Source of the DNA: Deltaproteobacteria bacterium
GTDB taxonomy: Bacteria; Myxococcota; Kuafuiibacteriia; Kuafuiibacteriales; Kuafuiibacteriaceae
Reading direction: 5' to 3'
Assembly: GCA_040218735.1 (NCBI GenBank)
Contig: JAVJQW010000049.1
Coordinates: 160,001-224,000, forward strand
Length of the DNA stretch: 64,000 bases
Positions 2,916 through 63,651 of this stretch are shown piece by piece. Under the pieces are notes generated by a model. It searched no databases, was not told the DNA's origin, and saw only the letters and a list, made by a program, of their open reading frames with translations. The position numbers and the translations under genes were made by a program. Each line of letters begins with the position of its first letter. Positions within the stretch are counted from its first letter, which is position 1.

Positions 2916-4246
2916 GCGGCGGCCTCCTGGGTGACGTCGAGCTGACCGGTGACGGCGGCGGTGATGAGGGCCTGGCGGTATTCGTGCAGCGAGTCAATCT
3001 GGCGCTCGATCAGCCCCTGAGCGCTACGGGATTGAGCCAGCTCATTCCATGCCTCCGAGCCGATCATCTTCTGCTCCGCGATTGGCGGTAGCGCCATGTA
3101 GCAACTTCGCACGTGTTCGAGCCCGAGTCCCTGTTTAGTTCCGCCATATTGAGCCACCTTGAAGTGGGCCTGCCCGACGTCGGACGACAACGCGAGTGCG
3201 ATGAATTGTGAGTCTACCCCGTCTGGGGTCAGCCTAAGCAGGCATACGTGCTGATTGATGTACGCCTCGGGATCCGGCGCGGACCGAACGATTGCTACGG
3301 TTCCGGTGCGGGCGCCCGTAATGCAGACGAGAATATCTTGAGTGGCCACCAGAGTTCGCCTTCCTTCAGCGCCGCGCGGCGGCCGAACCCGCTGGATATT
3401 CGAAAGGTCGAGTTGAAGGTCGATCCCAAGATTGCCACTTTGAAGGAAGACGGGATCGCAGTTGTCGCCAGAGTAGTGGTCGGCCCACCCCCTTGAACCG
3501 GACGTTGCGAAGCTCGTAACGCTTCTGAGACGCGTCAACTCCCAGTGCGCCGGGATTTCGCCGATCCACGGGATGCCCGAGTCCTTCATGGGCGCGTCGG
3601 GGTTCAGGCCCTTGGTGACCGCGTGGTTGATGAGGGCGGCGCGCTTCTCGGCCAGCAGGTCCAGCAGCTTCTGCTTCTTGTCGATGAGGGCGTCAATGGC
3701 GGCCGTCTTGCGGTCGAGGAAGTCGGCGATGTCCAGCTGAGTGGAGATGGGCGGCAGGGGAATGAGGGCGTCCTTGATGCCCAACTGTCCGAGGCCGAAC
3801 CGTGTGACTCCATTGGCGGCAACCCAGAACTGCTCTCTGATCCCCTGAGCTTGGAGCGCTCGGAGGAGGTACCTCCCTTGCAGGCGATCCGGCCGCGGGC
3901 GAAGCAACGTCAAATGGTATCCGCAAACGACATTGTCCAGTTCCTCGCGCACGCACGCGGGGATGGCGATGTCATTCCATGTCTCCGAGTCCTTGGTGAT
4001 GGCGACGTCACCCGTTTGAAGACCGAAGCGTCGTATCTCCGATGTGGTAGCGGTCGCCGTCATCAAATCCATCTGGTTCGAGATGAAGTCGTTGTAGTAG
4101 ACGTCGGTGTAGTTGCACAAACGAACGGGGTGACCACCGTCCTCTGACTTCTTGTCGACGGACGAGTTCGAAACGGAGGCAACGTGACGCAATCGGAGCG
4201 CCCGCCATTTCGGTGGAAGGGAGTTGAGCCACGGCGGTGTGTTCAC
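2912..4246 (-). CDS. hsdS: Type I R-M specificity subunit
   Basis: 444 aa, two TRDs separated by the conserved spacer (LPPISTQLDIADFLDRKTAAIDALI...MKDSGIPWIGEIPAHW); ends YRQALITAAVTGQLDV. TRDs are visibly less GC-rich than the spacers. Confidence 0.95.
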   Translation of the reverse strand: MNTPPWLNSLPPKWRALRLRHVASVSNSSVDKKSEDGGHPVRLCNYTDVYYNDFISNQMDLMTATATTSEIRRFGLQTGDVAITKDSETWNDIAIPACVREELDNVVCGYHLTLLRPRPDRLQGRYLLRALQAQGIREQFWVAANGVTRFGLGQLGIKDALIPLPPISTQLDIADFLDRKTAAIDALIDKKQKLLDLLAEKRAALINHAVTKGLNPDAPMKDSGIPWIGEIPAHWELTRLRSVTSFATSGSRGWADHYSGDNCDPVFLQSGNLGIDLQLDLSNIQRVRPPRGAEGRRTLVATQDILVCITGARTGTVAIVRSAPDPEAYINQHVCLLRLTPDGVDSQFIALALSSDVGQAHFKVAQYGGTKQGLGLEHVRSCYMALPPIAEQKMIGSEAWNELAQSRSAQGLIERQIDSLHEYRQALITAAVTGQLDVTQEAAA

Positions 4247-6306
4247 GTGAGTGCCTCGCCGAGCATCCCCTGGATCTCCGCCTCCAGCGCCCGAATCTCC
4301 TCCTCGATCACCGCCAAGTCCCGCGGCGGCTCGTACACGTAGAAGTGCCGCGTGAACGGGATCTCATACCCCACCTTCGTCTTCGCCTCGTCGATCCACG
4401 CGTCCGGCACGTGCGGCAGCACCTCCCGCTCCATGTACGCCGCGATGTCCTCCTTCAGCGGCACGTTCTCGTAGTCACGCAGCTCCGGGTCCGGCTCGGG
4501 CGCGCCCTTCGATGTGCACACCTCCGCGGTTTCGTCGCGCTCGGACAGCGCGTTCAGCACCGCCTTGCGCACGGGCGCCGCGAGCTCGACGCCCGCCGAC
4601 TTCATCGCGGACTTCAGCGCCTTCACGAACTCCGGTCGCGACTTGTAGACCCGCTCGCCGTCCATCGACGCCAGCACTGCGCGCACGGCCTCCTGCTGCG
4701 CGCGGCCGGCTTCGATCGCCTGCTTCCCCGCCTCGCCCTTCTTCTTCGACTTCGCGAGGTTCTGCCACGCGCGCTCGTCCTCGAGACGGGCGATGCGCTC
4801 CGGCGACGTCGAGAAGTTCAGCTGGAGCGGGCGCTCGACGGTGATGCGATGAAAGCCGAAGTCGGCGTTGTCGAAGATCTTCACGTCCGGCCCGGGCTCG
4901 AACGCGATGTAGCGTCGCGCGAGCTCGTCGATGTGCTGCTCGCTCAGCTCCTTGCGCTTGTCGCCGAGGCTCTTTCTCATCTTCTGGAAGTACTTCACGC
5001 CGTTGATCAGCTGCACCTTGCCCCTGCGGTGCGCGGCCTTTCGGTTCGTGACCAGCCAGATGTAGGTCGAGATCCCGGTGTTGTAGAACATCTGATCCGG
5101 CAGCGCGACGATCGCCTCCAGCCAGTCGTTCTCCAGAATCCACCGGCGAATCTCCGACTCGCCCGAGCCCGCCGCTCCCGTGAACAGCGGCGACCCGTTG
5201 AACACGATCGCGAGGCGGCTGCCTCCGTCCTCCTTCGGCTTCATCTTGCTGAGCATGTGCAAGAGGAACAGGAGCGACCCGTCGTTCTTGCGCGGCAGCC
5301 CCGGCCCGAAGCGCCCCGCGTGCCCGCGCTGCTCGTGCTCGGTCCGCACGTCGGTCTCCGCCTTCGACCAGTCCACGCCGAACGGTGGGTTCGAGATCAG
5401 GTAGTCCGCGCGGAGGTCGGGGAGGTCGTCGTGCGAGAAGGAGTTACCGAACTTGATGTTGTCGGCCTGGTGGCCCTTGATGAGCATGTCGGCCTTGCAG
5501 ATGGCGTAGGACTCGCCGTTGATCTCCTGCCCGTAGACCTGCAAGCGCGCCTGCGGGTTGAGCTTCGAGATGTGCTCCTCGGCGACGGACAACATCCCGC
5601 CCGTCCCGCACGCCGGGTCGTACATCGTGCGGACGATCCCGGCGGTGTTGAGGGCCTCGTCGTCCTCCGAGAACAGGAGCGTCACCATGAACTTGATGAC
5701 TTCGCGCGGCGTGAAGTGTTCGCCGGCCGTTTCGTTCGACTGTTCGGAGAACTTCCGGATGAGCTCTTCGAAGATGTAGCCCATCTCCGTGTTGCTCACG
5801 TGACTCACCGGCTTGCCGTCGGGGCCAACGCAGGGGGAGCCATCCGGGTTGCGCTCGTATGGGTCGAGATCCACCGCGGTGAACTTCTTGAGGACGAGGA
5901 AGAGCAGGTTGGCGCCGTCCAGGCGCGCCACCTGCGTCTCGAACGCGAACTTCTCCATGATGTCCCGGACGTTCTTCGAGAAGCCGTGGACGTAGCCGGT
6001 CAGGTTGGCGGCGGCGTTGTTCGGGTCGTCGAGGAGCCCGGCGAAGTCGAGCTTCGAAGTGTTGTAGAACGTCTCGCCCGACGCCTTGAGCAGCATCTGC
6101 TCGCGCAGGGCCTCCGGCGTCTTGTCGGCCGGGTGCTTCGCGTGCGCGGCGAGCACCGCCTGGCGCGTGGCGGCCAAGACCTGGTCGAGGCGTCGCAGCA
6201 CCAAGAAGGGGAGGATGACTCGGCCATACTCGGACTGTTTGTAGTCGCCGCGCAGGAGGTCCGCGACCCCCCAGATGAAGCTGACCTTTTCGGAGAAGTT
6301 CTGCAT
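4243..6306 (-). CDS. hsdM: Type I R-M N6-adenine methyltransferase
   Basis: 687 aa. IWGVADLLRG N-terminus, GEHFTPREV, motif I YDPACGTGGML, motif IV SNPPF, C-terminal KVGYEIPFTRHFY. Confidence 0.96.
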   Translation of the reverse strand: MQNFSEKVSFIWGVADLLRGDYKQSEYGRVILPFLVLRRLDQVLAATRQAVLAAHAKHPADKTPEALREQMLLKASGETFYNTSKLDFAGLLDDPNNAAANLTGYVHGFSKNVRDIMEKFAFETQVARLDGANLLFLVLKKFTAVDLDPYERNPDGSPCVGPDGKPVSHVSNTEMGYIFEELIRKFSEQSNETAGEHFTPREVIKFMVTLLFSEDDEALNTAGIVRTMYDPACGTGGMLSVAEEHISKLNPQARLQVYGQEINGESYAICKADMLIKGHQADNIKFGNSFSHDDLPDLRADYLISNPPFGVDWSKAETDVRTEHEQRGHAGRFGPGLPRKNDGSLLFLLHMLSKMKPKEDGGSRLAIVFNGSPLFTGAAGSGESEIRRWILENDWLEAIVALPDQMFYNTGISTYIWLVTNRKAAHRRGKVQLINGVKYFQKMRKSLGDKRKELSEQHIDELARRYIAFEPGPDVKIFDNADFGFHRITVERPLQLNFSTSPERIARLEDERAWQNLAKSKKKGEAGKQAIEAGRAQQEAVRAVLASMDGERVYKSRPEFVKALKSAMKSAGVELAAPVRKAVLNALSERDETAEVCTSKGAPEPDPELRDYENVPLKEDIAAYMEREVLPHVPDAWIDEAKTKVGYEIPFTRHFYVYEPPRDLAVIEEEIRALEAEIQGMLGEALT

Positions 6307-6491
6307 GGGCTGATGCTCGTTGGCTCGCGTCCCGCGTTACCGCGTGACGAAGAGCGTCCGAGTGTCTAGCGGGTGATGGCGCCGCACGCCAGCCGCGTGC
6401 GTTGGGCATCCCATTGTCATTGGGAAGACGAACCAAGCTGGACCTTGGGCATCCCCGACGGCAGACTCCTTGTTCCGGGTGAGGTGACCTC

Positions 6492-7421
6492 ATGAGCGAG
6501 CAGCACAAGATCGTGATTCGCGGCTCGGCCGTGGGTGATGACCGTATTTCTGGCCACGTCTTCCGGGACCTCCTCGATGTCCTCGTCGAGGGCTCGGAGC
6601 GCGCCCTGCGTTTCTACATCGACGGGCGCAGCACTGCGCGCGGCACGCAGCCCGGTTGGATTCGCTCCGCGGCGGACTTCCAGCTGGTCCGGGGCGTCGA
6701 GGGCGACGCGGGAACGGCGATCGTGGAAGCGCGCCCCCTGATCGAAACGATGCCCGAGCGCTTCCAGCAGAGCGAGCTGTTCTCGGACGTCGATCCCGCG
6801 TTGTCGCCGATCGAGCTCTTCGAGAACGCACTCGAAGACGCGCTCGCGGGCAACGAGGACAGCGACCGCTTCGACCTTGCGCTTCTGAAGACCATCGAGA
6901 AGCTCGAGGGGCTCATCGCTCACGGCGTGGATCAGGTCGAGCTCGTGAACGGACGGACCATCAAGGTGGACCGCGCCGCGCTCGCACAGGCGCATCGTGT
7001 TTCTCAGAAGGCGTTTGCACCGCAGCGGGTCAAGGTCGCCGGTCGTCTGGAGGCGATTCGCTACAGCGGCTGCCGGTTTACGTTGGTGACCGCGGACGGA
7101 GTACAACTCAGCGGGGTCGCTGTGGACCTCGGACCCGAAGCGCTGTCGAACCACTTTGGCGAGGAGGTCGTGGTCACCGGGACGGCCGTGTTTCGCGCGT
7201 CGGGCTTCCCGCTTCGTATCGAGGCCGCGCGTATACAGCGCGCCTCTGCCGAGCAGATTTCCTTGTGGTCGGCGGTTCCGAAGCCTCTCCTCGCGCCGAA
7301 GTCACGCGCGGCCGCGTCGTCGGCACAGCGCGCCAAGGGTGGGCTCGCGGCCGTGTTCGGGAAGTGGCCGGGCGACGAGTCCGATGAAGAGATCGCAGCG
7401 GCGCTCGCGGCTCTGTCGTGA
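6492..7421 (+). CDS. Hypothetical protein with possible OB-fold domain and C-terminal antitoxin-like tail
   Basis: 309 aa, host-like codon usage, GAGGTG RBS. Tail [22 protein letters not shown]. Stop overlaps the start of the PIN gene (GTGA). Confidence 0.7.
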   Translation: MSEQHKIVIRGSAVGDDRISGHVFRDLLDVLVEGSERALRFYIDGRSTARGTQPGWIRSAADFQLVRGVEGDAGTAIVEARPLIETMPERFQQSELFSDVDPALSPIELFENALEDALAGNEDSDRFDLALLKTIEKLEGLIAHGVDQVELVNGRTIKVDRAALAQAHRVSQKAFAPQRVKVAGRLEAIRYSGCRFTLVTADGVQLSGVAVDLGPEALSNHFGEEVVVTGTAVFRASGFPLRIEAARIQRASAEQISLWSAVPKPLLAPKSRAAASSAQRAKGGLAAVFGKWPGDESDEEIAAALAALS

Positions 7422-7855
7422 CGTCCGGTGACCAGCAGTGGTTCGTCGACACCGGCGTCCTCGTACACGTACTTCGCGGTAGTGCCCTTGGCCGCTACGT
7501 CCTCGACGACCTCCAGCTCCGTGCGGTGGCCGAGGTGCCGTACGTCTCCGTCGTCACGGTCGGAGAGCTCCTCTCGCTCGCATCGCAGTTCGGGTGGGGC
7601 GCGAAGCGCCGCGCGCAGATGTACGAGGTTCTGGCGGAGCTGATCGTCGTCGACATCAACCAGGAGGCCACGCTCGAGCGGTACGCGGAGCTCGACGCCT
7701 GGTGCGTGAAGCGCGGGTGGTCGCTGGGGAAGAACGACCTCTGGATCGCGGCTTCAGCGGCGGTGACCGGCGCGATGATTCTGACCGTGGACAAGGACTT
7801 CGATGCACTGGAGGGCGTGGGCGGCGTTCGTCGGCTCTATCTCGACCCCGGATGA
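7418..7855 (+). CDS. vapC: PIN-domain (VapC-like) ribonuclease toxin
   Basis: 145 aa. [31 protein letters not shown]: the PIN acidic active-site residues are present. Confidence 0.9.
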
Positions 7856-7924
7856 CCTGGGTCGAGCCATCCGCCCCCTCGGTCCCTCTTGCCGACACGG
7901 GCCGGCACCCTCCCGGGCCGGGGT

Positions 7925-7952
7925 TTGCGGTTTCTCCAAACCGCGTTAGCGT
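7925..7952 (+). promoter_or_regulatory. Putative prkA promoter overlapped by an inverted repeat
   Basis: TTGCGG-N16-TAGCGT, 10 nt before ATG 7963. Perfect IR GCGGTTT-ctcc-AAACCGC at 7927-7944. Confidence 0.4.
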
Positions 7953-7962
7953 CTCACCTCCC

Positions 7963-10011
<2,049 letters not shown>

Positions 10012-12928: not shown

Positions 12929-13144
12929 TCACCGTGGCCCGGGCTTGGGCTGTGACACCGGCAGGCGCGGGTGCCCCGTCGGCGGGTTCTCGCAACGCGG
13001 TTCGATCCCTTGCCGCAGACACTCGCACGACGATTCGGTCCCGCCGCACGACCCCTTCAGCCGCTTGCCCGCGACGACGACGCCGATCGCCATCCCCGCG
13101 ACCGCGGTGAGCAAGATGGCGAACGTGAGCAAGAAGATCGTCAT
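12929..13144 (-). CDS. nqrM: Na+-NQR maturation factor NqrM (DUF539)
   Basis: 71 aa. Hydrophobic N-terminus, MAIGV, LKGSCGG plus further Cys residues; follows apbE. Confidence 0.88.
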   Translation of the reverse strand: MTIFLLTFAILLTAVAGMAIGVVVAGKRLKGSCGGTESSCECLRQGIEPRCENPPTGHPRLPVSQPKPGPR

Positions 13145-14217
13145 GGCGTCCTCTCCCGGTCACCCGGGTCGCCGGCGTCGGCGAGGAAGGCTTCGAAGGC
13201 CTCCGTCATCTTGGTCTCGACGCCTTCGTCTGTCACCACGAAGAACGCCGCGGCCAGGCGCTGATCTTCCGCGACGCTCGAACCTTCGACCTCGCCCAGG
13301 ACCATGAGCGCCGTGGCCCAGGCGTCCGCGAGGGCCGTGGACGTGTGGATGACACTCGCGCCGGCGAGGCGGTGCCGGACGGGCGCGTGGGTCCGCGGGT
13401 CGATCGTGTGGCCGTAGCGCCGCCCGCCGCGCTCCCAGAAGTTCTTGTCGTTGCCGGAGGTCGCGACGCCTTGGCGGTCGAGCTCGACCGCGATCGCGCC
13501 GTCGCCGGGGCGCTGGACCGCGACGCGCCACGCGGCGCCCCGTTCGTTGTGACCCCGCGCGCGGGCCTCGCCACCGACCTCCACGAAGTAGTCCTCGATC
13601 CCGTTTGCCTCGAGCGCCCCCGCGACGCGGTCTACCGCGTAGCCCTTCGCGATGCCCGAGAGGTCGACCTGCACCGCGTCGGACGCCTTGGTGACCGTGT
13701 TGCCGTCCAGCCGGAGTTTGTCCCAACCGACAGACGATGCGAGCTGCGCGAGGTCGGCCTCGCTCGGTTCGCGGTCGGTGCGTCCGGCCGCGCCGAAACC
13801 CCACGCGTCCACGAGCGGACGGACGGTGACGTCGAACGCACCGCCGCTCGCCTCGGCGACCGACGCCGCGTCGCGCAGGACGGCCATCGTGGCGGGAGAG
13901 ACTTCGAAGGCCTCCCCGGCCGGCGCGCGGGCGAGGCGCGAGACCTCGGAGTCGGGTTCGTAGGTCGACATCGCGGCGACCACCGCGTCGAGCTCGGCGC
14001 GAATGACGGCGCCCAGCGCTTCGGACTTCGTCGCGTCCAGGGGCTGCGCGAGCTTGACGGTGTACGTCGTCCCCATCGTGTCGCCGCGCCACGCCGCAGG
14101 GCTGGAGCGGGGCGACAGGTACAGCCAGCCGAAGCCGCCCACGAGGAGCGCGAGCAGCACGTACCACCGCGCGGCGCGCGGCGCGGCGGCCGCGGCGTGG
14201 CGATCAACCGAAGTCAT
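13141..14217 (-). CDS. apbE: FAD:protein FMN transferase
   Basis: [63 protein letters not shown]. Confidence 0.95.
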
Positions 14218-15427
14218 CGAAGGCGATCATCTCCGGTTCGACGCCGAGATCGTCGAGCATCGACATACACGCCTTCAACATCATCGGCGGACCGCACAGG
14301 TAGTATTCGACGTCCTCCGGCGCGGGGTGGTCCTTCAGGTAGCGGTCGAGCAACACCTGGTGGATGAACCCCGTGGGGCCGTCCCAGTCGTCGTCGGGGA
14401 GCGGGTCGGACAGCGCGAGGGTCCACTCGAAGTTGTCGTTCTCTCGCGCGATGCGCTCGAAGTCCTCGACGTAGAACGCCTCTTTCAACGACCGCGCGCC
14501 GTACCAGAACGTCACCTTGCGGTCGGTGTGCAGGCGCAGGAACTGATCGAAGATGTGCGAGCGCATCGGCGCCATCCCCGCGCCGCCGCCGATGAAACAC
14601 ATCTCGGCCTTCGTGGGTTTCGCGAAGAACTCACCGTAGGGCCCCGAGATGACGACCTCGTCGCCTTCCTTCAGGTTGAAGATGTACGAAGACATCTGCC
14701 CGGGCGGGAGCCCCTGCGTGCGCGGCGGGGGCGTCGCGATGCGCACGTTGAGCATGATGATCCCACGCTCCTCCGGGTAGTTCGCCATCGAGTACGCGCG
14801 TGTGACCGGCTCGGACACCACGCTCTCGAGCTTCCACAGATCGAACTTGTCCCAGTCGTCGCGGAACTTCTCTTGGATGTCGAAGTCACCGTACTTCAGG
14901 TGGTGCGGCGGGCACTCGATCTGGATGTACCCACCCGCCCGGAACGGGACCTCTTCTCCTTCGGGCAGCTCGAGGACCAGCTCCTTGATGAACGTGGCGA
15001 CGTTGCGGTTCGAGCGGACTTTGCAACTCCACTTGCGGATGCCGAAGATCTCCTCCGGCAAGCGGATCTCGACGTGGTCCTTCAGCTTGAGCTGACAGGA
15101 CAGCCTGCACCCCTCGCGCGCTTCGCCGCGGCTGATGTGACCGACCTCCGTCGGCAGCATCGCGCCGCCCCCGGACACGACGTCGACCTTGCAGACGCCG
15201 CAGGAGCCCTTGCCGCCGCAGGCGGAGGGGATGAAGATCTTGTGCTCGGCGAGGCTGCCGAGGAGCGTGCCGCCGCCGTTGGTGGTGATCGTCTTGTCGG
15301 GGTCGCCGTTGATGCCGATCTTCACGGCGCCGCTGGTGACGAGCTTCGCCTTCGCGAGCATCAACACCACGACCATCATCAGGACGAGGAAGACGAACAT
15401 GGCGACGCCGATGCCGATGGTCTGCAT
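14204..15427 (-). CDS. nqrF: Na+-translocating NADH:quinone reductase subunit F
   Basis: [12 protein letters not shown] 2Fe-2S motif, [27 protein letters not shown], terminal DDFG. Confidence 0.97.
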
Positions 15428-15436
15428 GGGGTCCTC

Positions 15437-16051
15437 CTAGAGTTGGATTCCGGCGAACGCCATGAAGCAGATCGCCATCAGGCCCGTGACCATGAACGTG
15501 AGCCCGAGGCCACGAAGAGGTGGGGGGACGTTGCTGTACCGCAGCTTCTCGCGGACCGACGCGAGCGCGACCACCGCGAGGAACCAGCCCACGCCCGACC
15601 CGAGCCCGAACACCGCGCTCTCCCCGAGCGAGAGGTCCCGCTCGTTCATGAACAGCGACGCGCCGAGGATCGCGCAGTTGACCGCGATGAGCGGGAGGAA
15701 CACGCCGAGCGCCGCGTAGAGCTTGGGCGCGTAGCGATCGATGAACATCTCGACGATCTGCACCAACGCCGCGATCGTCCCGATGAACGTCAGGAACACG
15801 AGGAAGCTGAGGTCCACGTTGGCGAGCGAAGGCGAGACCCACGCGAGCGCGCCTTCGCGCAGCAGCCCGGTCAGCAGGAGGTTGTTCACGGGCACGGTGA
15901 TCGCGAGGACGAACGTCACCGCGGCGCCGAGCCCGATCGCCGTCGACACGCGCTTCGAGACCGCGAGGAACGAACACATGCCCAAGAAGAAGGCGAGGGC
16001 CATGTTCTCGACGAACACCGCCTTCACGAAGAGGTTCAGGTACGGCTGCAT
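15437..16051 (-). CDS. nqrE: Na+-NQR subunit E
   Basis: [32 protein letters not shown], terminal GIQL. Confidence 0.97.
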
Positions 16052-16060
16052 GGCGGGCTC

Positions 16061-16738
16061 CTACGCTCCCTCGACGGCGCCGTCGGGCGCTTCGTGGGGG
16101 ACCTCGAACGTGAGCTCCTCCTCGACCTGCTCGGGCTTCCAGGCGCGAATCGCCCAGATGATCCCGCCGATCAGGAAAAACGCCGCGGGCGGCAGCACCA
16201 TGAGGCCGTTCGGCACGTACCATCCGCCGTCCGTGACGAGCGGGAGCACCTCGTAGCCGAAGAGCTTGCCGAACCCGAGGAGCTCACGCAGCGCCGCGAC
16301 GACGAGCAACACGATGCCGTACCCGGCGGCGTTACCGAGCGCGTCCCAGGCGCTGAGCCACGGGCCGTTCTGCATCGCGAAGGCCTCGGCGCGGCCCATG
16401 ATGATGCAGTTGGTGATGATCAGCCCGACGAACACGGAGAGCTGCTTCGACACCGAGAACGCGTACGCCTGCAGGAGTTGGTCGGTGACGATCACCAGCG
16501 ACGCGACGATCGTGAGCTGAACGATGATGCGCACGCTCGGCGGGATGTAGTTGCGGATCAGGCTGATCGCGACGTTCGAGCAGAGCAGCACGCCCATCAC
16601 CGCGAGGCACATCACGATCGACGGCGCGAGCATCGTCGTGACCGCGAGCGCCGAGCAGATGCCGAGCACCTGCTTCGCGATCGGGTTGTCGTCGAACATC
16701 GGGTCGAGCGCGGCCGACTTCTCTGCCTTGCCGATCAT
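16061..16738 (-). CDS. nqrD: Na+-NQR subunit D
   Basis: [36 protein letters not shown]. Start trimmed to ATG 16738. Confidence 0.96.
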
Positions 16739-17517
16739 GATTTGCTCCCCTTCGCGAGGTACGGCCCGTACCCGTCGGGTCCGAGCCAGAACTGAATCGT
16801 CGCGGTCACGCCGCGCGAGGTGATGGTGGCGCCGGAGATCCCGTCCACCTGGTGCGGGGCCTCGGACGCCGGCTTCGCGGCGCCCTTGATGACCTCCAGC
16901 GCGACCGCGCCCGCGTCGTCGTAGACCTCGCGGCCCTTCCACAGCGACTGCCAGCGCGGGTTCTCGATCTCACCGCCGAGCCCGGGGGTCTCGCCGTGTT
17001 CGTAGAACGTGATGCCCTCGACGGTGCGGCCGTCGCGGTCGAGCGCGAGGAAGCCGTACATCGTCGACCACAGCCCGTACCCGGAGATCGGCACGACGGT
17101 GGTCTTCACCTCGCCGCCCTCGAGCACCTGGTAGACGAGGCCGCGGTTCGGGACGCGCTGCACCCGCGCGGCGTTGTCGGGCGCCGGCTTCGACCGCTCG
17201 GGATCCTTCGCCGCTGCGCGCTGGTCGAAGGTCGCCGCGTCGACGTCGTCGACGTAGTCACCGGTCTCGAGGTCGACCACCCGCGCCACGACGTTCTCCT
17301 CGAAGCGCTCCAACACGGCGTTCGAAGCGAGCTTTTCGCCGGTCTTCGTCAAACCGGCGACCGCGAGGACCTTCGACTGGCGATCGACGACCTTGTTGAG
17401 GTCCTGTCGGTCCTTCAGGCCGACCGCCGCCGACGACACGAAGATCGCGCAGACGCCGCACAGGACGACCGTGAAGCCGACGATGTACTTCGGGGAGCCG
17501 AGATCAGGCGTTGGCAT
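16735..17517 (-). CDS. nqrC: Na+-NQR subunit C
   Basis: [24 protein letters not shown] attachment motif VDGISGAT. Confidence 0.97.
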
Positions 17518-18715
17518 AGCGTGCGCGCCTCCGCTTCTTGTTCGCCTCCACCACGAAGTGGTCGATCAGCGGCGCGAACATGTTCATGAACAGGATGGCG
17601 AGCATGACGCCCTCCGGGTAGGCCGGGTTCACACACCGGATGAGCACCGTGAGCACGCCGATGAAGAACCCGTAGACCCAGCGGCCGGTGTCCGTGAACG
17701 CCGACGAGACCGGGTCCGTCGCCATGAAGACGAGGCCGAACGCGAGCCCGCCGAGCACGATGTGCCAGTGGAACGGGACGTTCATCATCGGGTTCGTGTC
17801 GGAGCCGATCGTGTTGAGGAGCATCGCCGTCGCAAACGTCCCGCCGACCACCGCGACCATCGTCCGCCAGGATCCGATGCCGGTAACGATCAGGAGGAAC
17901 GCGCCGAACAGCGAAGCCGCGACCGACGTCTCGCCCATCGAGCCCGGGACGAAGCCCCAGAACGCGTCCCACCACGTCGCGTTCGCCAGCGGCGCGCCGG
18001 ACTCCGCGAGCGAGGCGAGCCACGTCGAGCTGCTCACGCCGTCGGCGGGGAGCGCGGCGATCCAGACGTCGCCGGAGATCGCGGCCGGGTAGGCGAAGAA
18101 CAGGAACGCCCGCGCGACGAGCGCGGGGTTGAGGAAGTTCATCCCGGTGCCGCCGAAGATCTCCTTGCCGATGATGACGCCGAACGCCGTCCCCATCGCG
18201 ACCTGCCACAGCGGGATCGTCGCGGGGAGCGTGAGCGGGATGAGGAGGCCGGTGACGAAGAAACCTTCGTTGACTTCGTGGCCGCGCAGGATGGCGGAGC
18301 CCACCTCGATGATCCCGCCGGTCGCGTACGTGACGGTCAGGATCGGGAGGAAGTAGATCGCGCCGTGCACCAAACAAGCGACCACGGAGCCCGAGCTCAG
18401 CGGGAGCCCCGTCATCGCGAACAGCGCGGACTGCCACGTGTCGAGCGCGGTACCGCCGCCTTCGATGAGCCGGTGCGCCTGAAGGCCGGTGTTGTACATC
18501 GCCATCAGCGTCGCCGGGACGAGCCCGATGACGACGATGACCATCATGCGCTTGAGGTCGAGCCCGTCGCGCACGTGCGCCGCGCGCTCGGCGGTCGACG
18601 CGGGGGTGAAGAGGAAGGTGTCCCCGGCTTCGTAGAGCGGGTACAGCGCGGTCTTTCGACCGTCTCGCTCGAAGCGCGCTCCGAGTCGGTCCAGTAGACG
18701 TCTGAGGCCGTTCAT
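17504..18715 (-). CDS. nqrB: Na+-NQR subunit B
   Basis: [50 protein letters not shown]. Start trimmed to ATG 18715. Confidence 0.96.
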
Positions 18716-18716
18716 C

Positions 18717-20072
18717 TCAGCCCTCCGCGTGGATTTGGTCGAGGACGTCGCGGAGGTACACCGCGAAGTCGGTTTTGCCAGGGTCGACGAACGTGCAGAG
18801 CGACAGGTCTTCTTCGTCGAGCTCGAGCACGCCGAGCTCCTCCGCCCATTCCAGGTCCTTGATGCACAGCGCTCGGAGCAGGTGCGTCGGCATGAGGTCC
18901 ATCGGGACCACCCGCTCGTAGGCGCCGATCGGCACCATCGCGCGGCGCGAGCCGTTGGTCGTCGTCGTGAACGCAAACGGCTTGCTGCCCATCAGCTTGG
19001 ACACGAACACGGGCAGCGCCGAGAACTTGTTCAGGCCCGGCCGGAGCCACCCGAGCAGCTCGCGTTCGCGCCCCTCAGCGAGGGCGGAGATCTGAAGGTG
19101 ATACGCGCCGAGGTAACCGTGCACCTCCCCGCGCGCCCGACGTCCGCTCAGCACGGAGCCGGAGATGACGCGGAGGTCGTCGCCCTCGAGCTCGCCCTCG
19201 ACGAGCTCGTCGATGCTGGCACCCACGCGTGTCTTCAGGAGGCGCGGTGTTTTCACGACCGGTCCGCCGAGCGCCACGACGCGGTCGACGTCGAGCACGC
19301 CCGTCGCAAAGGTGCGCCCGATCCGGACCACGTCGGCGTAGGTGAGGTGCCAGACCTCCTTGCCGCGGTACACCGGGTCGAGGACGTGGATGTGGTAGCC
19401 GACGGTGCCGCTCGGGTGCGGTCCGCGGAACTCCTCGACGGTCGCGCCGCTGTCCCCGGGCTCGATCGCCGAGCCCGCGCGGCGGCACAGGCGCACCGGT
19501 CCGTCCGTGAGCTTCTTCAGCACGGCGAGCCCGCGGACGAGGTCGTCTTCGCGACCCTCGAGGGCCACGGCCGGGTCGACGGCGAGCGGGTTGGTGTCCG
19601 TCGCGGTGACGAAGATGGAGCGCGGTTTTGCACCGGGGATCGGTACCCGCGAGTACGGTCGCGTCCGGAGCGTGGTCCAGAGCCCGGACTCGATGAGGAG
19701 GGCGCGCACGCTGTCGGCGTCGCGATCGGCGGCGCCGTTCGCGAACGTGTCGAACGTGCGCTTCGCGTCGTCTTCGTCCTCGTCGAGCTCGATGACCACC
19801 GACTGCAGCGCGCGCTTGGCGCCGCGGTGGACGGCGGCGACGCGGCCGCCGCCGGGCGCGACGAAGAGGACGCCGGGGTTCTTGGCGTCCTCGAAGATCA
19901 GTTCGCCCCGGCGGACGCGGTCCCCTTCTTGGACGCGGGGGCGCGGCTTCGCCCCGACGAAGTCGGCGCCGAGGAGCGCGACCCGCCGTACCGGCTTGTG
20001 CTCGGCTTGGCTCGGGTCGGGCACGCCCGCCACGGGGAGGTCGAGACCCTTCTTGCTGCGATGCACCACCAT
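18717..20072 (-). CDS. nqrA: Na+-NQR subunit A
   Basis: [55 protein letters not shown]. Confidence 0.97.
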
Positions 20073-50157: not shown

Positions 50158-50835
50158 GTGCAATTCAACACGAAGGACAAAGAGCTCACGCTCAAGATCG
50201 TCTACTACGGCCCGGCGCTCTCCGGGAAGACGACGAACATCCAGGCGTTGCACGCGATGCTCGACCCCGCGGCGCGCGGTCGGCTGATGACCCTCGACAC
50301 CAAGGGCGACCGCACCCTGTTCTTCGATCTCCTCCCCGTCCACTTCTCCACGCGCTCGGGTTTCAAGGTGAAGATCAAGCTCTTCACGGTCCCCGGCCAG
50401 GTGATGCACGAGTCGACGCGCCGCATCGTCCTCGCGTCCACCGACACCGTGTGTTTCATCGCCGACGGCCAGCGCTCGCAGCGCGCCGCGAACAACGAGG
50501 CGTACGCGGGGATGCTGAGGAACCTCAAGTCGCAGGGGCTCGATCCCGGCGAGGTCCCGATCGTCATCCAATTCAACAAGATGGACCTCGGGGACGTCCT
50601 CACGGACGAGGAGCTCGCCGACTACGAGCGCCGCGGGTCGGAGCCGGTGTTCAAGGCGTCGGCGATCCGCGGAGAGGGCGTCGTGGAGACGCTCAAGGGC
50701 GGCATGTCGCTGCTGTGGCAACGCCTCGACGAAGTCCACGACCTCGCGCGCAAGCTCCAGATCACGCGCGAGGAGTTCATGAACGGCATCTTCCACTCCC
50801 TGCGTGACGACAAGCGCCTGGAGGCGCAGCCGTGA
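50158..50835 (+). CDS. MglA/SofG-family small GTPase
   Basis: KIVYYGPALSGKTTN, DRTLFFD, TVPGQ, NKMD, SA. Confidence 0.92.
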   Translation: MQFNTKDKELTLKIVYYGPALSGKTTNIQALHAMLDPAARGRLMTLDTKGDRTLFFDLLPVHFSTRSGFKVKIKLFTVPGQVMHESTRRIVLASTDTVCFIADGQRSQRAANNEAYAGMLRNLKSQGLDPGEVPIVIQFNKMDLGDVLTDEELADYERRGSEPVFKASAIRGEGVVETLKGGMSLLWQRLDEVHDLARKLQITREEFMNGIFHSLRDDKRLEAQP

Positions 50836-52337
50836 CGAGCGGCTCCATGGGTGGTCATCCTTCGCTGCCGGTCATGACGGATGACCTGGTCGCGGAGGGG
50901 ACGCCGGTCGACGGGCCGACGGCGCCGAGTGTCCTCGACCGCCAGATCCACCTCGGGGAGCTGCTCGACGTCACCGCGTTCCGCGACGTCTGCGCGAGCT
51001 TCGTCGACCTCTACAAGATCGGCCTCAAGATCTTCGAGAAGGACGGCACCAAGCTCGTCGACATCCGCGTCGGCAACGGCGACTGGTGCGGTTACATCTT
51101 CAGCGACCCGAAGGGCCGCTCGCAGTGCACCGGTCTGGTCACGCGCATCAAACAGTTCGACTACCCCGAGCTGGGGACGGGGGAGGTCGTCGAGCAGACC
51201 TGCTTCTCCGGGCTGAAGTACGTGATCATGCCGATCACCTACGGCGGGGACCTGCTGGGGCGCGTGATCTACGGGCCCTTCATGCCGGCGGACCTCGCGC
51301 GCCCCGGCGACGACGTCTACCAGTACGGCGAGGACTTCGATCCCAACCGTCTGTGGTCGTACGGCGAGAAGATTCGCCGCGCCCCGGACGAGATGATCAT
51401 GAAGATCCTCACCAACTTCCGACGCGTGGTCGACACGGTGACCTTCATCGCGATGAAGGCGCACATGACGCAGCAGCTGCACCTGGAGTCGGTGACCGCG
51501 AGTTACAACGAGCTCGCGAACGCGAACAAACGGCTGCGCCGATCCTTCGAGAAGCTGAAGGAGCTCGACAAGCTCAAGTCGAACTTCCTCGCGATGATCA
51601 GCCACGAGCTGCGCACGCCGCTCACGAGTGTCATCGGGTACTCGGAGATGTTGATCGAAGGCCTCGCGGGGCCGATGCCCGACGAGCAGTCGCAGTACGT
51701 CCAGACGATCAAGGAGAAGGGCGTTGCGCTCTTGGATCTGATCGGGTCGCTCCTCGACATGTCGAAGATCGAGGCGGGCGCGATGCAGCTGAAGGTCGCG
51801 GACGTCGAGCCGGTGACGCTGCTGGAGGGGGCGAAGAGCTACGTCGTCCCGCAGGCGCAGAAGAAGCGCATCACGCTCGCGATCGACGTCGCGCCGGACG
51901 TCCCCGTCTTCAAGGGCGATCCCGACAAGCTGCGCCAGTGTTTGATCAACCTGGTGGGCAACGCGACGAAGTTCACGCCGGAGGGGGGCACGATCACCCT
52001 CGCGGCGGCGATGTGGACGGGGACGCGCAAGAACGCGCCGGACGCCGGCCGGTTCGGGCCGCCCGAGGAGACCTTCGTGCGGCTGGAGGTGCGGGACACC
52101 GGGATCGGGATCCCCGCCGACAAGCTGGAGCAGGTCTTCAGCAGCTTCTACCAGGTCGACAACTCGATCACCCGCGAGTACGGCGGTACGGGTCTGGGGC
52201 TGGCGATCGTCAAGCGCTTCGTGGAGGCCCACAAGGGTGAAGTGCGGGTCACGAGCGCAGAAGGGCAGGGCACGACCTTTGCGCTGCTCATCCCCGCGGA
52301 CGCGAACCTCGGCGAGAGCGTCGACATCGTCATGTGA
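50832..52337 (+). CDS. PocR-domain sensor histidine kinase
   Basis: Cys-containing PocR-like sensor (WCGYI..SQC..TCFSGL), [31 protein letters not shown]. Confidence 0.88.
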
Positions 52338-59524: not shown

Positions 59525-59628
59525 TTTCGTGATGGTCTGCACAACGCATCGTTCAGCCATCGAAACCTCAACAGAACGTCACGAACCACCGAACGCGAGC
59601 GCCGCGTTTGGATCGGAGACCCACACGC

Positions 59629-59865
59629 ATGATGGAACAAGTGAGAGCGGTCGACACCGAACAGCCCCGTAACGTGGGCCTCGATCTTTCACAGGAGATC
59701 GAGCGCCTCAAACGAGAGCACCGCGAGCTGAAGGCCCGCCTCTCCGAGCTGAACAGTCGACTTCACCTCTCCATCGACGAAGAGATCGAGCGCAAGAAGA
59801 TCCAGAAGCTGAAGCTCCTCAAGAAGGACCAGCTCCTGATGCTCGAAGCCAAGCTGCACAACTAA
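59629..59865 (+). CDS. DUF465/YdcH-like small coiled-coil protein
   Basis: LKREHRELKARL...KKLKLLKKDQL; GGAG RBS. Confidence 0.8.
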   Translation: MMEQVRAVDTEQPRNVGLDLSQEIERLKREHRELKARLSELNSRLHLSIDEEIERKKIQKLKLLKKDQLLMLEAKLHN

Positions 59866-59920: not shown

Positions 59921-60871
59921 ATGGCGAAGACCGTGGCCGTACTGGGCGCCCACTCCGCGATCGGAGAGGCGCTCCTCACCGCCCTCGACGATCGAGCTCT
60001 GGACGCCGCCATCGTCGCGGCGACGACGACCGAGCACGTCGACGCGGGGCACGTCCTCATCGACGCCGATCTCATCTCGCGCGGCGACCTGTTCGTGATC
60101 GCGTTCGGCGGCAAGGTCGCCGAGGGCGTCGCGGCGGGGCTCATCGCTCAGGGCAAGCCGGTGCTGGACCTCGCGGGGGTCACCGAGGCGCCGTTTGTGT
60201 TCCCGACCCTCACCGAGGAGGTCTTTGCGCCCGCGCGGATCGCGGTGGGGCTCGCGGAGCCCGTCGCCGCGATCGTCCGGGCGTTGTCGCCGTTTTCGCC
60301 GTCGGCGGTGGACGTCACCACGTTCGAGTCGGCGGCGACGTTCGATCGCCCAGGGATGGACGAGCTGTCCGCGCAGACGCGGGCGGTGTTCACGATGCAG
60401 GACGCGCCGGCGGAGGTCTTCGCCGCGACGCTCGCCTTCGACGTCATCCCCACGGTGACCGGGCCGGACGGCGAGTGGGATCTGGCGGACGCCGCGCTCG
60501 CGACGGCGGTGACGGCGGCGTGTGGTGTTCCCGCCGATGCGACGCGGATCTTGGTGCCGTCCTTTTCGGCGGAGGGGGCGGTCGTCCGCCTCACCGTGGA
60601 GGGGACGCCGGACTTCGAGACCGTCGAGACGGCTTTGGCGGGGGGCAAGGGGATGCGGTACCTCCCGGACGAGCCGCCGCCGACGGTCGACGTCGTGGAT
60701 CGCGACGACGCGCTGGTGGGGCGGCTCGTCATTCGCGCGGGGCGGATCACGCTGTGGCTCGCGGCGGACCGGCTGCGGCGCGGGGGTGCGAGCCAGGCTG
60801 CGCTGTGGGTCGAGCGTTGGCTGAGTGGGAAAATCGGTGCTAGCGTCCCAGCGCCCCGAACGGACGCGTAA
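59921..60871 (+). CDS. Aspartate-semialdehyde dehydrogenase-like protein (Usg-like, degenerate)
   Basis: VAVLGA, GMDELSAQT, LAFDVIP, VGRL, WLAADRLRRGGA. The catalytic NPNC motif is not present. Confidence 0.8.
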   Translation: MAKTVAVLGAHSAIGEALLTALDDRALDAAIVAATTTEHVDAGHVLIDADLISRGDLFVIAFGGKVAEGVAAGLIAQGKPVLDLAGVTEAPFVFPTLTEEVFAPARIAVGLAEPVAAIVRALSPFSPSAVDVTTFESAATFDRPGMDELSAQTRAVFTMQDAPAEVFAATLAFDVIPTVTGPDGEWDLADAALATAVTAACGVPADATRILVPSFSAEGAVVRLTVEGTPDFETVETALAGGKGMRYLPDEPPPTVDVVDRDDALVGRLVIRAGRITLWLAADRLRRGGASQAALWVERWLSGKIGASVPAPRTDA

Positions 60872-60874
60872 CAG

Positions 60875-62842
60875 ATGCGAAATGCTTGGTTGATTGCAGC
60901 AGGGGTCGTGGCGGCGGCGGGTTGGACGCGGGCCGCCGAGGCCCAAAAACCCACGATCGTGCCGGACCCGCTCCCCGAGGCGTCGAAGCGCCTCAACATC
61001 GCGGAGATCGAGGCCAACGCGCGTATCCCCCTGTCGTGGATCGCGACGTTCAACGCGGGTGTCATCCCGGGGACGGGCGAGAGTTACTCGTACCAGCTCA
61101 CGTACGACAACTTCGTGACCGCAGAGCGGGCGGAGCTTCGGCTGATCACGGTCGAGGACGTGGAGTTCGGCGCCGAGGCCGAGGACCGCCAGGACAACGG
61201 CGCGCGCGTCACCGTGTACGTGCTGCCGCAGGATCTCGTCGCGGGGTTCGACCGCGAGGACGCTTCGGACCTCCCGCCGCCGCTCGGCACGGGCGCCGAC
61301 AACATGGAGCGCGAGGTCTTCTTGAAGGTCTACGCGGACGCGGACGAGACCGACGAGTTCCGGTACCAGACCTTCACGTGGCAGTTCGAGTACGACACGC
61401 GGCCGCCGCCGCAGCCGACCGTGACCAAGGTCGAGCCCGGCGAGAACCGCCTTCAGCTTTCGTGGGAGATCTCGGACGACGCCGACGTCGCGACCTACAA
61501 CATCGTCTACTGCCCGGACATCAGCGCGCTCGACGTCGACGAGGAGATGCTGATGGCCGACACCGCCACGACCGGCGGGGTGCTCCCGTGCGCGCAGCCG
61601 ACGGTCGGCGGGACGATCGACGGGATGTTCGGCAGCGCAGGCGTTCAGGCGGGCCTCGCGGTCGGCGTGAAGGCCGCGCTCGCGGTGCGCGCGGTGGACG
61701 AGGCCGGCAACGTCGGACCGCTGTCGAACGTGGTGATCGCCGAGCCGGTGCCGGTGAGTGACTTCTGGGAGCTGTACAAGGAGAGCGGCGGCGCCGAGGA
61801 GGGTGGCTTCTGCTTCATCGCGACCGCGGCGCACGGCTCGTACGCGCACCCCGCGGTGCAGGTGCTGCGCTGGTTCCGGGACGCGGTGTTGATCCCGGCG
61901 CCGGGCGGGCGCGCGATCGTCGACACGTACTACCGCTGGTCGCCGCCGATGGCGCGCCGAGTCGCGGCCGACGAGGATCTCGCGGCGGCGACGCGCGTCG
62001 CGCTGGTGTTCGGCGTGCTGCTCGCGCTCGCGGCGCTCGCGATGCTCGGCTTCGGCGCTGGGTTCGTGGTGGTGGCCGTCGCGCGGCGCGTGAAGCTCGC
62101 GTGGGCGGCGGCGCTGCTCGTGCTGCTGATCGGATCCACCGCGGAGGCCCGACGCCCGGACTCGACGATCGAGTCGTTCGGGCTCGGCTACGAGTTCAAG
62201 GGCGGGCCGTACCTGCCGGACCTCGGCAACACCGGCGGCGGGACCGAGGGCAACACGGCCTTCCAGGACATCTTCGAGTCGAACCCCAATGAGTTGTTCA
62301 CGATCGGCCTCGACGTACAGCTCTACCGCGGCATCGGCACGGCGGGGGTGGGCGCGAGCTTCGGCTTCATGCAGTTCGTCGGGCGCGGGCGTTACGCGAG
62401 CGGCGAGAACGTGGGGGAGATCGCGCAGGACACCACGGTCTTCAACATCGCGCCGCTGACGCTCACCGGCTTCTATCGCTTCGACTGGTTGGCCGACCAG
62501 ATACCGCTTCCGTTCGTGCCGTACGTGAAGGGCGGGCTCGCCTACTACGTCTGGTGGGTGACCACCGGGACGGGCGACGTCGCGCGCTTCGAGCAGCCGG
62601 GCAACGGCGCGGACGACCTCGCGGGGCGCGGCGGCAAGTTCGGCCTCACGGGGACGGTGGGCATGGCGATCATGCTGAACGTGTTCGAGCCGGCGTCGGC
62701 GCAGAGCCTCCACGCGGCCACCGGCGTGCGCGGGACGTACCTGTTCGGCGAGCTGCAGGCGAACAAGATCGATGGGTTCGGCTCGGCCGGGTTCGACTTG
62801 TCGGACGTGACCTGGAACATCGGTCTGTACCTCGAAATGTAG
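60875..62842 (+). CDS. Fusion: secreted FN3-like protein + CFI-box-CTERM + MXAN_2562-like outer-membrane beta-barrel
   Basis: Signal peptide (AAEA), DTRPPPQP/AVRAVDEAGN FN3-like segment, DFWELYKESGG..GGFCFIATAAHGS, hydrophobic segments, then alternating beta-strand region ending WNIGLYLEM. Confidence 0.8.
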   Translation: MRNAWLIAAGVVAAAGWTRAAEAQKPTIVPDPLPEASKRLNIAEIEANARIPLSWIATFNAGVIPGTGESYSYQLTYDNFVTAERAELRLITVEDVEFGAEAEDRQDNGARVTVYVLPQDLVAGFDREDASDLPPPLGTGADNMEREVFLKVYADADETDEFRYQTFTWQFEYDTRPPPQPTVTKVEPGENRLQLSWEISDDADVATYNIVYCPDISALDVDEEMLMADTATTGGVLPCAQPTVGGTIDGMFGSAGVQAGLAVGVKAALAVRAVDEAGNVGPLSNVVIAEPVPVSDFWELYKESGGAEEGGFCFIATAAHGSYAHPAVQVLRWFRDAVLIPAPGGRAIVDTYYRWSPPMARRVAADEDLAAATRVALVFGVLLALAALAMLGFGAGFVVVAVARRVKLAWAAALLVLLIGSTAEARRPDSTIESFGLGYEFKGGPYLPDLGNTGGGTEGNTAFQDIFESNPNELFTIGLDVQLYRGIGTAGVGASFGFMQFVGRGRYASGENVGEIAQDTTVFNIAPLTLTGFYRFDWLADQIPLPFVPYVKGGLAYYVWWVTTGTGDVARFEQPGNGADDLAGRGGKFGLTGTVGMAIMLNVFEPASAQSLHAATGVRGTYLFGELQANKIDGFGSAGFDLSDVTWNIGLYLEM

Positions 62843-63651
62843 TGCGGACGATTCGACTGATCGTCGAGTACGACGGGACGGCCTTCGCGGGCTGGCAGAT
62901 CCAAAAGGGGCACAAGGCACCGACGGTGCAGGGTGCGCTCGAACGTGCGATTTCGAAGATGACGCAGACGCCGGTGAGCGTACGCGGCGCTTCGCGGACC
63001 GACGCGGGGGTGCACGCACGCGGGCAGGTCGCGGTGTTCAAGACCGACAAGGACATCCCGTGCATCGGGTTCGAGCGGGGCCTCGGGCAGTTCATGCCGC
63101 GGGGGATCTCGATCCGGCGTGCGGAGGAGGTCGAGGACGGCTGGGACCCGCGACGTACGTCGCGCGGGAAGCGGTACCGCTACACCTACTGGAACGATCG
63201 CACGCCGAGCGCGCTGGAGCGTGACCGGGCGTGGTGGGTGAAGGTCGGGCGCCTCGAGGTCGCGCCGATGCACGAGGCGGCGCAGGTGTTCCTCGGGACG
63301 CACGACTTCGAGGCGTTCCGCAGCGCGGGCTGCTCGGCGCGGCACGCGGTGCGGACGATGTACTCGGCGCGGGTGTTCGAGGGGGAGCACGAGCGGGTGA
63401 TCTTCGAGATCGTCGGGAACGCGTTCGTGCGGAACATGGTGCGGATCATGGCTGGGAACCTGTGCGACGTGGGGCTCGGGCGCATGACGAAGGACCAGCT
63501 CGTCGACGTGCTCGCTTCGAAGGATCGCACGCGCGGTGGGATGACGGCGCCGCCGCACGGGCTGTGCCTGGAGGAGGTCATCTACGACGACCGCCTGCCG
63601 CCGCGTCCGAAGGACGGCGTGGACCTGACCGAGGCGGATGCGGGAGAGTAG
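62842..63651 (+). CDS. truA: tRNA pseudouridine(38-40) synthase
   Basis: EYDGTAFAGWQ, SRTDAGVHARGQ, GTHDFEAF, GNAFVRNMVR, TAPPHGL. GTG start at 62842. Confidence 0.97.
   Translation: MRTIRLIVEYDGTAFAGWQIQKGHKAPTVQGALERAISKMTQTPVSVRGASRTDAGVHARGQVAVFKTDKDIPCIGFERGLGQFMPRGISIRRAEEVEDGWDPRRTSRGKRYRYTYWNDRTPSALERDRAWWVKVGRLEVAPMHEAAQVFLGTHDFEAFRSAGCSARHAVRTMYSARVFEGEHERVIFEIVGNAFVRNMVRIMAGNLCDVGLGRMTKDQLVDVLASKDRTRGGMTAPPHGLCLEEVIYDDRLPPRPKDGVDLTEADAGE

Follow-up and report, generated by a model that had tools for sequence, protein, structure and literature searches.

A single gene in the 64,000-nt stretch of DNA analyzed here (the window) probably encodes a polyprotein form of the Myxococcus xanthus pair SgmI (MXAN_2561) and MXAN_2562, in which one precursor would be cut internally by signal peptidase I (SPase I) and probably again at an internal cysteine. 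The gene is a single open frame on the forward strand (positions 60875 to 62842) and encodes 655 amino acids (aa). We regard as established the architecture of the protein, its conservation, the fold of its C-terminal outer membrane (OM) β-barrel and the absence of a ribosome-binding site at the junction between the two halves.

Precursor architecture

A first-pass annotation of this DNA had described one uninterrupted frame, and this is borne out: no stop codon separates the halves, and codon bias is uniform across the junction, with GC3 at 0.92 to 1.00 per 50-codon block, junction included, and at 0.80 in the first block alone. The evenness of GC3 across the junction thus gives no sign of a frameshift. 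An N-terminal Sec signal peptide, likewise recognized at first pass, occupies residues 1 to 23 (60875 to 60943) and ends in AEA before Gln24, a residue whose conservation reaches 90% or more in alignment A1 (A1 comprises 40 of 51 proteins). It is followed by two Ig/FN3-like β-sandwiches rather than the one FN3-like domain previously noted: the first at about residues 24 to 175 (60944 to 61399), seen in an AlphaFold2 model and in tandem FN3 matches over residues 24 to 295, and the second, an SgmI/MXAN_2561-like FN3 domain, at about residues 176 to 295 (61400 to 61759; Z ~12 and root mean square deviation [rmsd] ~2 Å to FN3 domains). Both match FN3 domains in structure comparison. A DFWELY helix and Gly-rich linker (residues 296 to 312; 61760 to 61810) form a predicted barrel-docking element. 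Cys313, whose codon begins at 61811, then opens a CFI-box-CTERM domain (residues 313 to 378; 61811 to 62008), matched by NCBIfam model CFI_box_CTERM (NF041770) with 78.2 bits against a cut-off of 40. The cysteine had been placed correctly at first pass, but the motif quoted around it left out AEE and in fact reads DFWELYKESGGAEEGGFCFIATAAHGS. The long hydrophobic stretch reported after the CFI-box corresponds to a transmembrane helix of 29 uncharged residues (375 to 403; 61997 to 62083), identified from the model and from hydropathy, with a putative out-to-in orientation. An internal signal peptide follows (62084 to 62149), comprising the n-region RRVK (residues 404 to 407), an h-region and AEA (423 to 425), so that the AEA/R cut falls before 62150, and the mature eight-stranded OM β-barrel of the MXAN_2562 family fills residues 426 to 655 (62150 to 62842).

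The AlphaFold2 model of the whole protein (40-sequence alignment; pLDDT 83.9) gives the same order: two β-sandwiches, CFI-box helices, a long helix (367 to 405), a short helix (409 to 418), a low-confidence linker (417 to 428) and the barrel. The two halves had been likened to MXAN_2561 and MXAN_2562. This holds for the barrel, which NCBIfam model MXAN_2562_fam (NF040596) matches at residues 439 to 655 with 176.8 bits against a cut-off of 100, but only as homology for the N-terminal half, where MXAN_2561_fam (NF045522) matches residues 163 to 327 with 62.9 bits, under its cut-off of 150, making this half a homologous non-member. NF040596 is typed as a subfamily_domain model, so its curators may already have met the barrel inside longer proteins. 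A Pfam scan of the 655-aa protein returned no match above cut-off, and a scan for promoters and terminators gave no signal beyond chance.

A probable sorting tag inside the protein

The CFI-box had been described as a motif that is normally C-terminal, and a comparison with other CFI-box open reading frames (ORFs) agrees: the tail from the Cys is 95 to 127 residues in 58 of 59 of them, against 343 residues here. The CFI-box would become near-terminal only once the predicted SPase I cut had been made. In a second set of fusions, here termed short-Cys, the order is GG-C, helix, Arg cluster and signal peptide, which is that of a MYXO-CTERM-type tag, and of 37 fusions scanned, 5 exceed the cut-off of the MYXO-CTERM model TIGR03901. 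The window protein has no TIGR03901 match; its Cys313 is not directly followed by the transmembrane helix, which begins at residue 375. Both tags nevertheless follow the stem DF[WY]xxY..GG..GG-C, and the Cys is invariant in each (Cys313 in 40 of 40 sequences of A1, and its counterpart throughout A4, the alignment of MYXO-type fusions). Given the common stem and the invariant Cys, the CFI-box Cys holds the position of the MYXO-CTERM Cys. The first domain in A4 also carries three invariant Cys that are missing from the consensus of the window clade.

A cut by a sorting enzyme at the Cys had been suggested at first pass, and we consider a second cut at or near Cys313 likely, by analogy with the MYXO-CTERM-type tag at the same Cys in ~50 fusions and from the predicted docking of the N-terminal half on the outer face of the barrel. 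The study that characterized MrtX shows, for TraA, that this enzyme cleaves MYXO-CTERM in a Cys-dependent manner (PMC11980579). Cys313 lies ~60 residues before the helix, unlike the Cys of MYXO-CTERM, and this distance suggests that MrtX itself may not cut there. We found no enzyme specific to the CFI-box, and by eye no common partner was obvious downstream of stand-alone CFI-box proteins. The main text of the Haft preprint on Cys sorting signals contains none of the terms CFI, 2561, internal or fusion (10.1101/2023.06.07.544157). The CFI-box helices gave no fold match, though other domains filled the match lists.

As a separate matter, a possible resemblance of GG-F-C to Hint/hedgehog autoprocessing sites was considered and set aside, the modeled region being helical and no Hint family being matched.

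Co-folding of the two halves, suggested at first pass as a check, predicts an interaction. Residues 24 to 400 with residues 426 to 655 gave 0.68 against 0.01 for the best control, with contact agreement of at least 67% and partner pLDDT of at least 78. Of 157 solved pairs 116 attained this mark, and of 215 mismatched pairs 2 did, a calibration that is only rough here, since we used our own alignment and the two halves of a split gene have a tendency to pass. The predicted interface joins residues 292 to 313 and a few FN3 residues to the outer loops of the barrel; in the model, each of the 39 interface residues of the barrel belongs to one of the four loops that face away from the termini, which in an OmpA-type topology is the extracellular side. 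Their conservation is only slightly higher than that of other outer-loop residues (0.42 against 0.37). Among the best 80 of 600 confirmed stretches from the Genome Taxonomy Database (GTDB), the docking motif occurs in 17 of 22 barrel-linked loci and in 1 of 59 other CFI-box ORFs, and that lone ORF (L012) belongs to a truncated split pair. Three divergent split pairs, outside Myxococcota or unclassified (L022, L024 and L057), are without the DFWxxY docking motif. From these models we lean toward the adhesin half docking on the outer face of the barrel. Such docking, if the model is right, requires the adhesin half to leave its inner membrane helix and hence a second cut.

Were SPase I to make the only internal cut, it would free the barrel and leave the CFI-box as a folded anchor that keeps the FN3 half in the periplasm, attached to the inner membrane. 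We judge this unlikely, although it deserves serious weighing. In its favor, the CFI-box folds in the model as a helical unit continuing into the membrane helix, the Cys is distant from that helix, a scan of 35 window ORFs identified no cognate sorting protease, and no paper on CFI-box-CTERM (NF041770) or its processing was found in the literature searched. Against it, a single cut fits poorly with predicted contacts on four extracellular loops and zero on periplasmic turns, with a tag that exchanges with the MYXO-CTERM-type tag at the same Cys (8 changes among the fused rows of a 136-row barrel tree) and with a Cys that is invariant in both tag types.

The junction: internal signal peptide or internal start

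For the junction itself, the first-pass annotation had offered either an internal AxA signal peptide cleaved by SPase I or translation of the barrel from an internal GTG, and conservation argues strongly for the former. All 40 sequences of A1 have Ala at position -1 of the junction site, and all 40 have Ala or Ser at position -3. We scanned the proteins past residue 45 with a weight matrix trained, with leave-one-out, on 35 N-terminal signal peptides of homologues; with this home-made matrix, whose training peptides come from the same proteins that it scans, the best site was at the junction in 36 of 40, while in the other 4 it lay in the first helix with the junction site still present. The junction site beat composition shuffles (p≤0.05) in 39 of 40. 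By the same matrix, the internal segment has the Sec/SPI features of a basic n-region, an h-region and Ala-x-Ala. Among the best 150 of 3014 barrel representatives, 37 of the 44 CFI-type fusions and 46 of the 48 short-Cys-type fusions have an AxA-like site; of the 44 CFI-type, 7 score below 8 and only 32 outscore their shuffles. In A1, the stretch that separates the two hydrophobic segments has a net charge of +2 to +9, which fits a helix running from out to in, a basic loop in the cytoplasm and a signal running from in to out whose cleavage site faces the periplasm. In one representative (P0144), a single hydrophobic segment separates the Cys from the barrel, a misfit to this two-helix topology for which a deletion or a sequence error is a possible cause. 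The conservation of the junction makes cleavage by SPase I after Ala425 very probable.

Translation of the barrel from a nested in-frame start at GTG 62090 (the codon for Val406) is, in our estimate, quite improbable. A start at Val406 would yield a well-formed 20-aa signal peptide, and split orthologues do begin at the junction-equivalent place, with an ordinary signal peptide there and a second gene whose start overlaps the stop of the first or sits a few bases past it. Yet among the best 80 of 600 GTDB stretches a junction start with a Shine-Dalgarno sequence (SD) occurs in 11 of 11 split loci and in 0 of 12 fused loci, the window included; GTG 62090 itself has no SD, and 3 of the 12 fused loci have no in-frame ATG, GTG or TTG anywhere in the junction range. 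This lack of a start with SD in fused loci makes internal initiation unlikely. Moreover, a homologue that is 81% identical (P0003) carries Ala at the equivalent of Val406, Met is found in the n-region of only 3 of 40 sequences, and the first half is followed by no stop, so that the long product would still have to be cut.

The C-terminal barrel

The C-terminal ~230 aa had been read as an amphipathic β-strand domain of the OM barrel kind, and modeling agrees. Modeled alone, the domain forms eight strands (pLDDT 87.8; pTM 0.83), and its best structure matches are NspA (Z 15.8, rmsd 2.7 Å over 153 residues), OprF (15.1) and OmpA (14.7), with OmpW also in the range of 14.3 to 15.8. A sequence search of the PDB with the barrel profile gave 0 matches. 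The predicted fold is that of OmpA/NspA/OmpW-type barrels; in contrast to these, the window barrel has long helical periplasmic turns and is without the OmpA peptidoglycan-binding domain. The β-signal for the BAM complex has a C-terminal aromatic residue. The window barrel ends in WNIGLYLEM, its last strand is amphipathic, and the last residue in 40 close homologues is L (18), F (11), M (4), W (4), I (2) or R (1), that is, Phe or Trp in 15 of 40.

A single ORF with passenger-like domains at its N terminus and a barrel at its C terminus recalls an autotransporter, in which an uncut single chain would have its barrel export or hold its own passenger. We consider this very improbable. The barrel of a classical (type Va) autotransporter has 12 strands and is continuous with its passenger, with no inner membrane helices between, whereas the window protein has eight strands and two hydrophobic segments with a basic loop between the halves. 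Its structure matches to NspA, OprF and OmpA (Z 14 to 16) exceed that to the autotransporter BrkA (Z 7.4), and split orthologues exist.

Recurrence of fused and split forms

Whether the fusion recurs in other genomes had been raised as a check, and it does. A homologue search returned 50 matches: 1 is the cluster of the window protein itself, 42 are fused (CFI-box, junction and barrel), 2 end after the tag and 5 are unrelated. BLAST identity of the fused homologues to the window protein is 37 to 81%. The best 80 of 600 confirmed GTDB stretches comprise 11 fused loci, 11 split loci with adjacent genes and 57 loci whose CFI-box proteins come without an MXAN_2562-type barrel, with L012 as a twelfth split pair interrupted by a contig end. 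A barrel profile built from 12 fused and 11 split barrels then found the fusion in ~97 of the best 150 of 3014 representatives: sorting by sequence pattern yielded 44 fusions of the CFI type, 48 of the short-Cys type, 47 stand-alone barrels and 11 others, and correction by eye gave 47, 50 and 39, with 14 ambiguous or partial rows left out. Named carriers are mostly Myxococcota or deltaproteobacterial metagenome-assembled genomes, and no cultured organism was found among the carriers seen. A search with the alignment of MYXO-type fusions yielded 8 proteins but no name of a cultured organism, and a search for shorter (split) homologues found 1 fragment among 8000 candidates.

On trees, the fused and split states switch repeatedly. 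A 37-row tree needs 5 changes between them, strong branches forcing at least 3, and a single change suffices in 0 of 200 bootstrap trees; the 136-row barrel tree needs 24 changes between fused and stand-alone, at least 9 of them forced. These counts come from unrooted trees without direction, and fragments may have been miscalled as stand-alone barrels in some rows. A split locus (L017) is sister to a fused one (L018) with support of 100/99. The DNA of these sisters (L017:6150-6650 and L018:6100-6620) is ~78% alike, and the fused junction is shorter than the split one, without its SD and ATGA overlap. One split form (L014:3503-4726) has a CFI-box tail of 82 residues without a transmembrane helix.

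An assembly error or fresh stop-codon loss confined to the window genome is effectively refuted by this recurrence, even though all carriers seen are metagenome-derived or unnamed: the window protein sits in a clade of 17 fused sequences with support of 100/100, codon bias runs uniformly over the junction, and fused loci hold no leftover SD.

Genomic context

Upstream lies an asd-like gene (59921 to 60871, forward strand), identified by family scans, and downstream is truA (62842 to 63651, forward strand), whose GTG overlaps the TAG of the fusion ORF; both serve here as markers of context and have no role in the proposed mechanism. Among the best 80 of 600 GTDB stretches, truA follows 7 of the 11 fused and 7 of the 11 split loci, and the asd-like gene precedes 3 of each. 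This common context marks the fused and split arrangements as forms of one locus, and in one of the loci (L001) the gene order from frr to an acyltransferase is the same as in the window.

Several other features of the window were observed. The asd-like gene is a divergent relative of aspartate-semialdehyde dehydrogenase, far under every asd cut-off, and may be a non-catalytic paralogue. Between it and tsaB is a small coiled-coil ORF of ~85 aa (59608 to 59865, forward strand). Positions 1989 to 10011 hold a type I restriction-modification M-like gene, a VapC-like gene preceded by an unannotated ORF, and a PrkA-like kinase gene; positions 13141 to 20072 (reverse strand) hold a Na+-NQR operon from nqrA to nqrF, then apbE; and a small GTPase gene, whose product we take to be MglA-like, followed by a histidine kinase gene, lies at 50158 to 52337 (forward strand), just before pyrH-frr-uppS-cdsA.

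Proposed maturation pathway

We propose the following route for the precursor. Sec would export the N-terminal half, with SPase I removing residues 1 to 23. From hydropathy and charge, helix 375 to 403 would then stop transfer, with basic residues 404 to 407 remaining in the cytoplasm. Residues 404 to 425 would act as a second signal peptide that restarts export and, as conservation strongly suggests, is cut after Ala425, and the freed 230-aa barrel would pass through BAM to the outer membrane. By analogy with MYXO-CTERM, a sorting step at or near Cys313 would free the adhesin half from the inner membrane hairpin, probably with lipidation, as modeled for MYXO-CTERM, and the half would probably reach the surface via type II secretion. 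There, the DFWELY helix is predicted to dock on the extracellular loops of the barrel, so that adhesin and barrel would form a 1:1 complex that serves in surface attachment. We infer a surface adhesin held by its own barrel, with the fusion fixing synthesis at 1:1.

More speculatively, and with somewhat less than even confidence, we suggest that a Cys sorting tag and an internal signal peptide together form a portable cassette with which Gram-negative bacteria encode a surface adhesin and its OM barrel as one doubly cleaved secretory polyprotein and that has been gained or lost many times. As part of the same suggestion, CFI-box-CTERM would be the substrate of an undescribed Cys-dependent surface-sorting system (sortase or self-processing), functionally interchangeable with MYXO-CTERM. 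The fused layout is common across the whole gene family and switches repeatedly, a pattern that points to a recurring and little-described route to two envelope proteins per gene. The shared Cys is the first positional evidence we found that the widespread CFI-box-CTERM may be a processed surface-sorting signal equivalent to MYXO-CTERM. For annotation, fused ORFs of such layout would represent two proteins.

A candidate from an uncultured Nitrospirota (L076:548-2149, forward strand) combines β-propeller repeats, CFI-box-CTERM, an Arg cluster, an internal signal peptide and a different OM barrel with a weak TraB match (NF033763, E 1.2e-4). It has an ATG within the h-region, past the basic stretch, and may be frameshifted upstream, the propeller ORF ending at 512. 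From its sequence, the cassette may not be confined to the MXAN_2562 family or to one phylum.

Comparison with known systems

To our knowledge, bacterial polyproteins cut internally by signal peptidase are rare, and in the literature searched we found none with an SPase-cut internal site yielding an OM barrel. The polyprotein idea does have precedent, in FbcH and in a proposal in print for MXAN_5598. FbcH, the cytochrome b-c1 precursor of Bradyrhizobium japonicum, is reportedly one gene giving two proteins through an internal Ala-x-Ala signal peptide; its products are said both to remain in the inner membrane, with no sorting tag and no OM barrel. In the literature searched we found no account of how widespread the fusion is, of tags exchanging at a single Cys or of the predicted docking.

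Among the closest known systems is the M. xanthus pair, likened here through NCBIfam models: the same two families occur in the same order, and the two FN3/Ig-like domains characteristic of SgmI/MXAN_2561 are present in the window protein. A preprint presents SgmI as an FN3 protein that ends in a sorting tag and is implicated in pilus-dependent motility; it reports that sgmI and MXAN_2562, which encodes an OM barrel, appear to be co-transcribed and have similar mutant fitness profiles, both mutants resembling exopolysaccharide and lipopolysaccharide (EPS/LPS) mutants in fitness, and it proposes a role in attachment (bioRxiv 10.64898/2026.08.28.747804). The window gene differs in having one ORF instead of two and CFI-box-CTERM instead of MYXO-CTERM. 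Our docking model predicts a specific SgmI-MXAN_2562 interface, testable in M. xanthus.

TraA and TraB are likewise a Cys-tagged surface protein and its OM barrel partner, encoded by overlapping ORFs (PMC11980579). With TraA/TraB and MYXO-CTERM/MrtX, however, the genes are separate and the Cys is next to the helix, as opposed to ~60 residues upstream of it here. Similar in layout is MXAN_5598, which the same source notes as a fusion resembling TraA and TraB that carries MYXO-CTERM internally, and for whose N-terminal part it proposes processing (PMC11980579); the protein also appears in a table of the vesicle proteome (PMC4158809). Like the window protein, MXAN_5598 has a Cys sorting tag inside the chain, with an adhesin region on one side and an OM barrel on the other, yet it is a lone, putative case with other families (a barrel with an OmpA domain). 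The published passage on MXAN_5598 makes no mention of an internal signal peptide or of cleavage by SPase I (PMC11980579), and the architecture of the window protein predicts that such a signal peptidase step is a missing part of its maturation.
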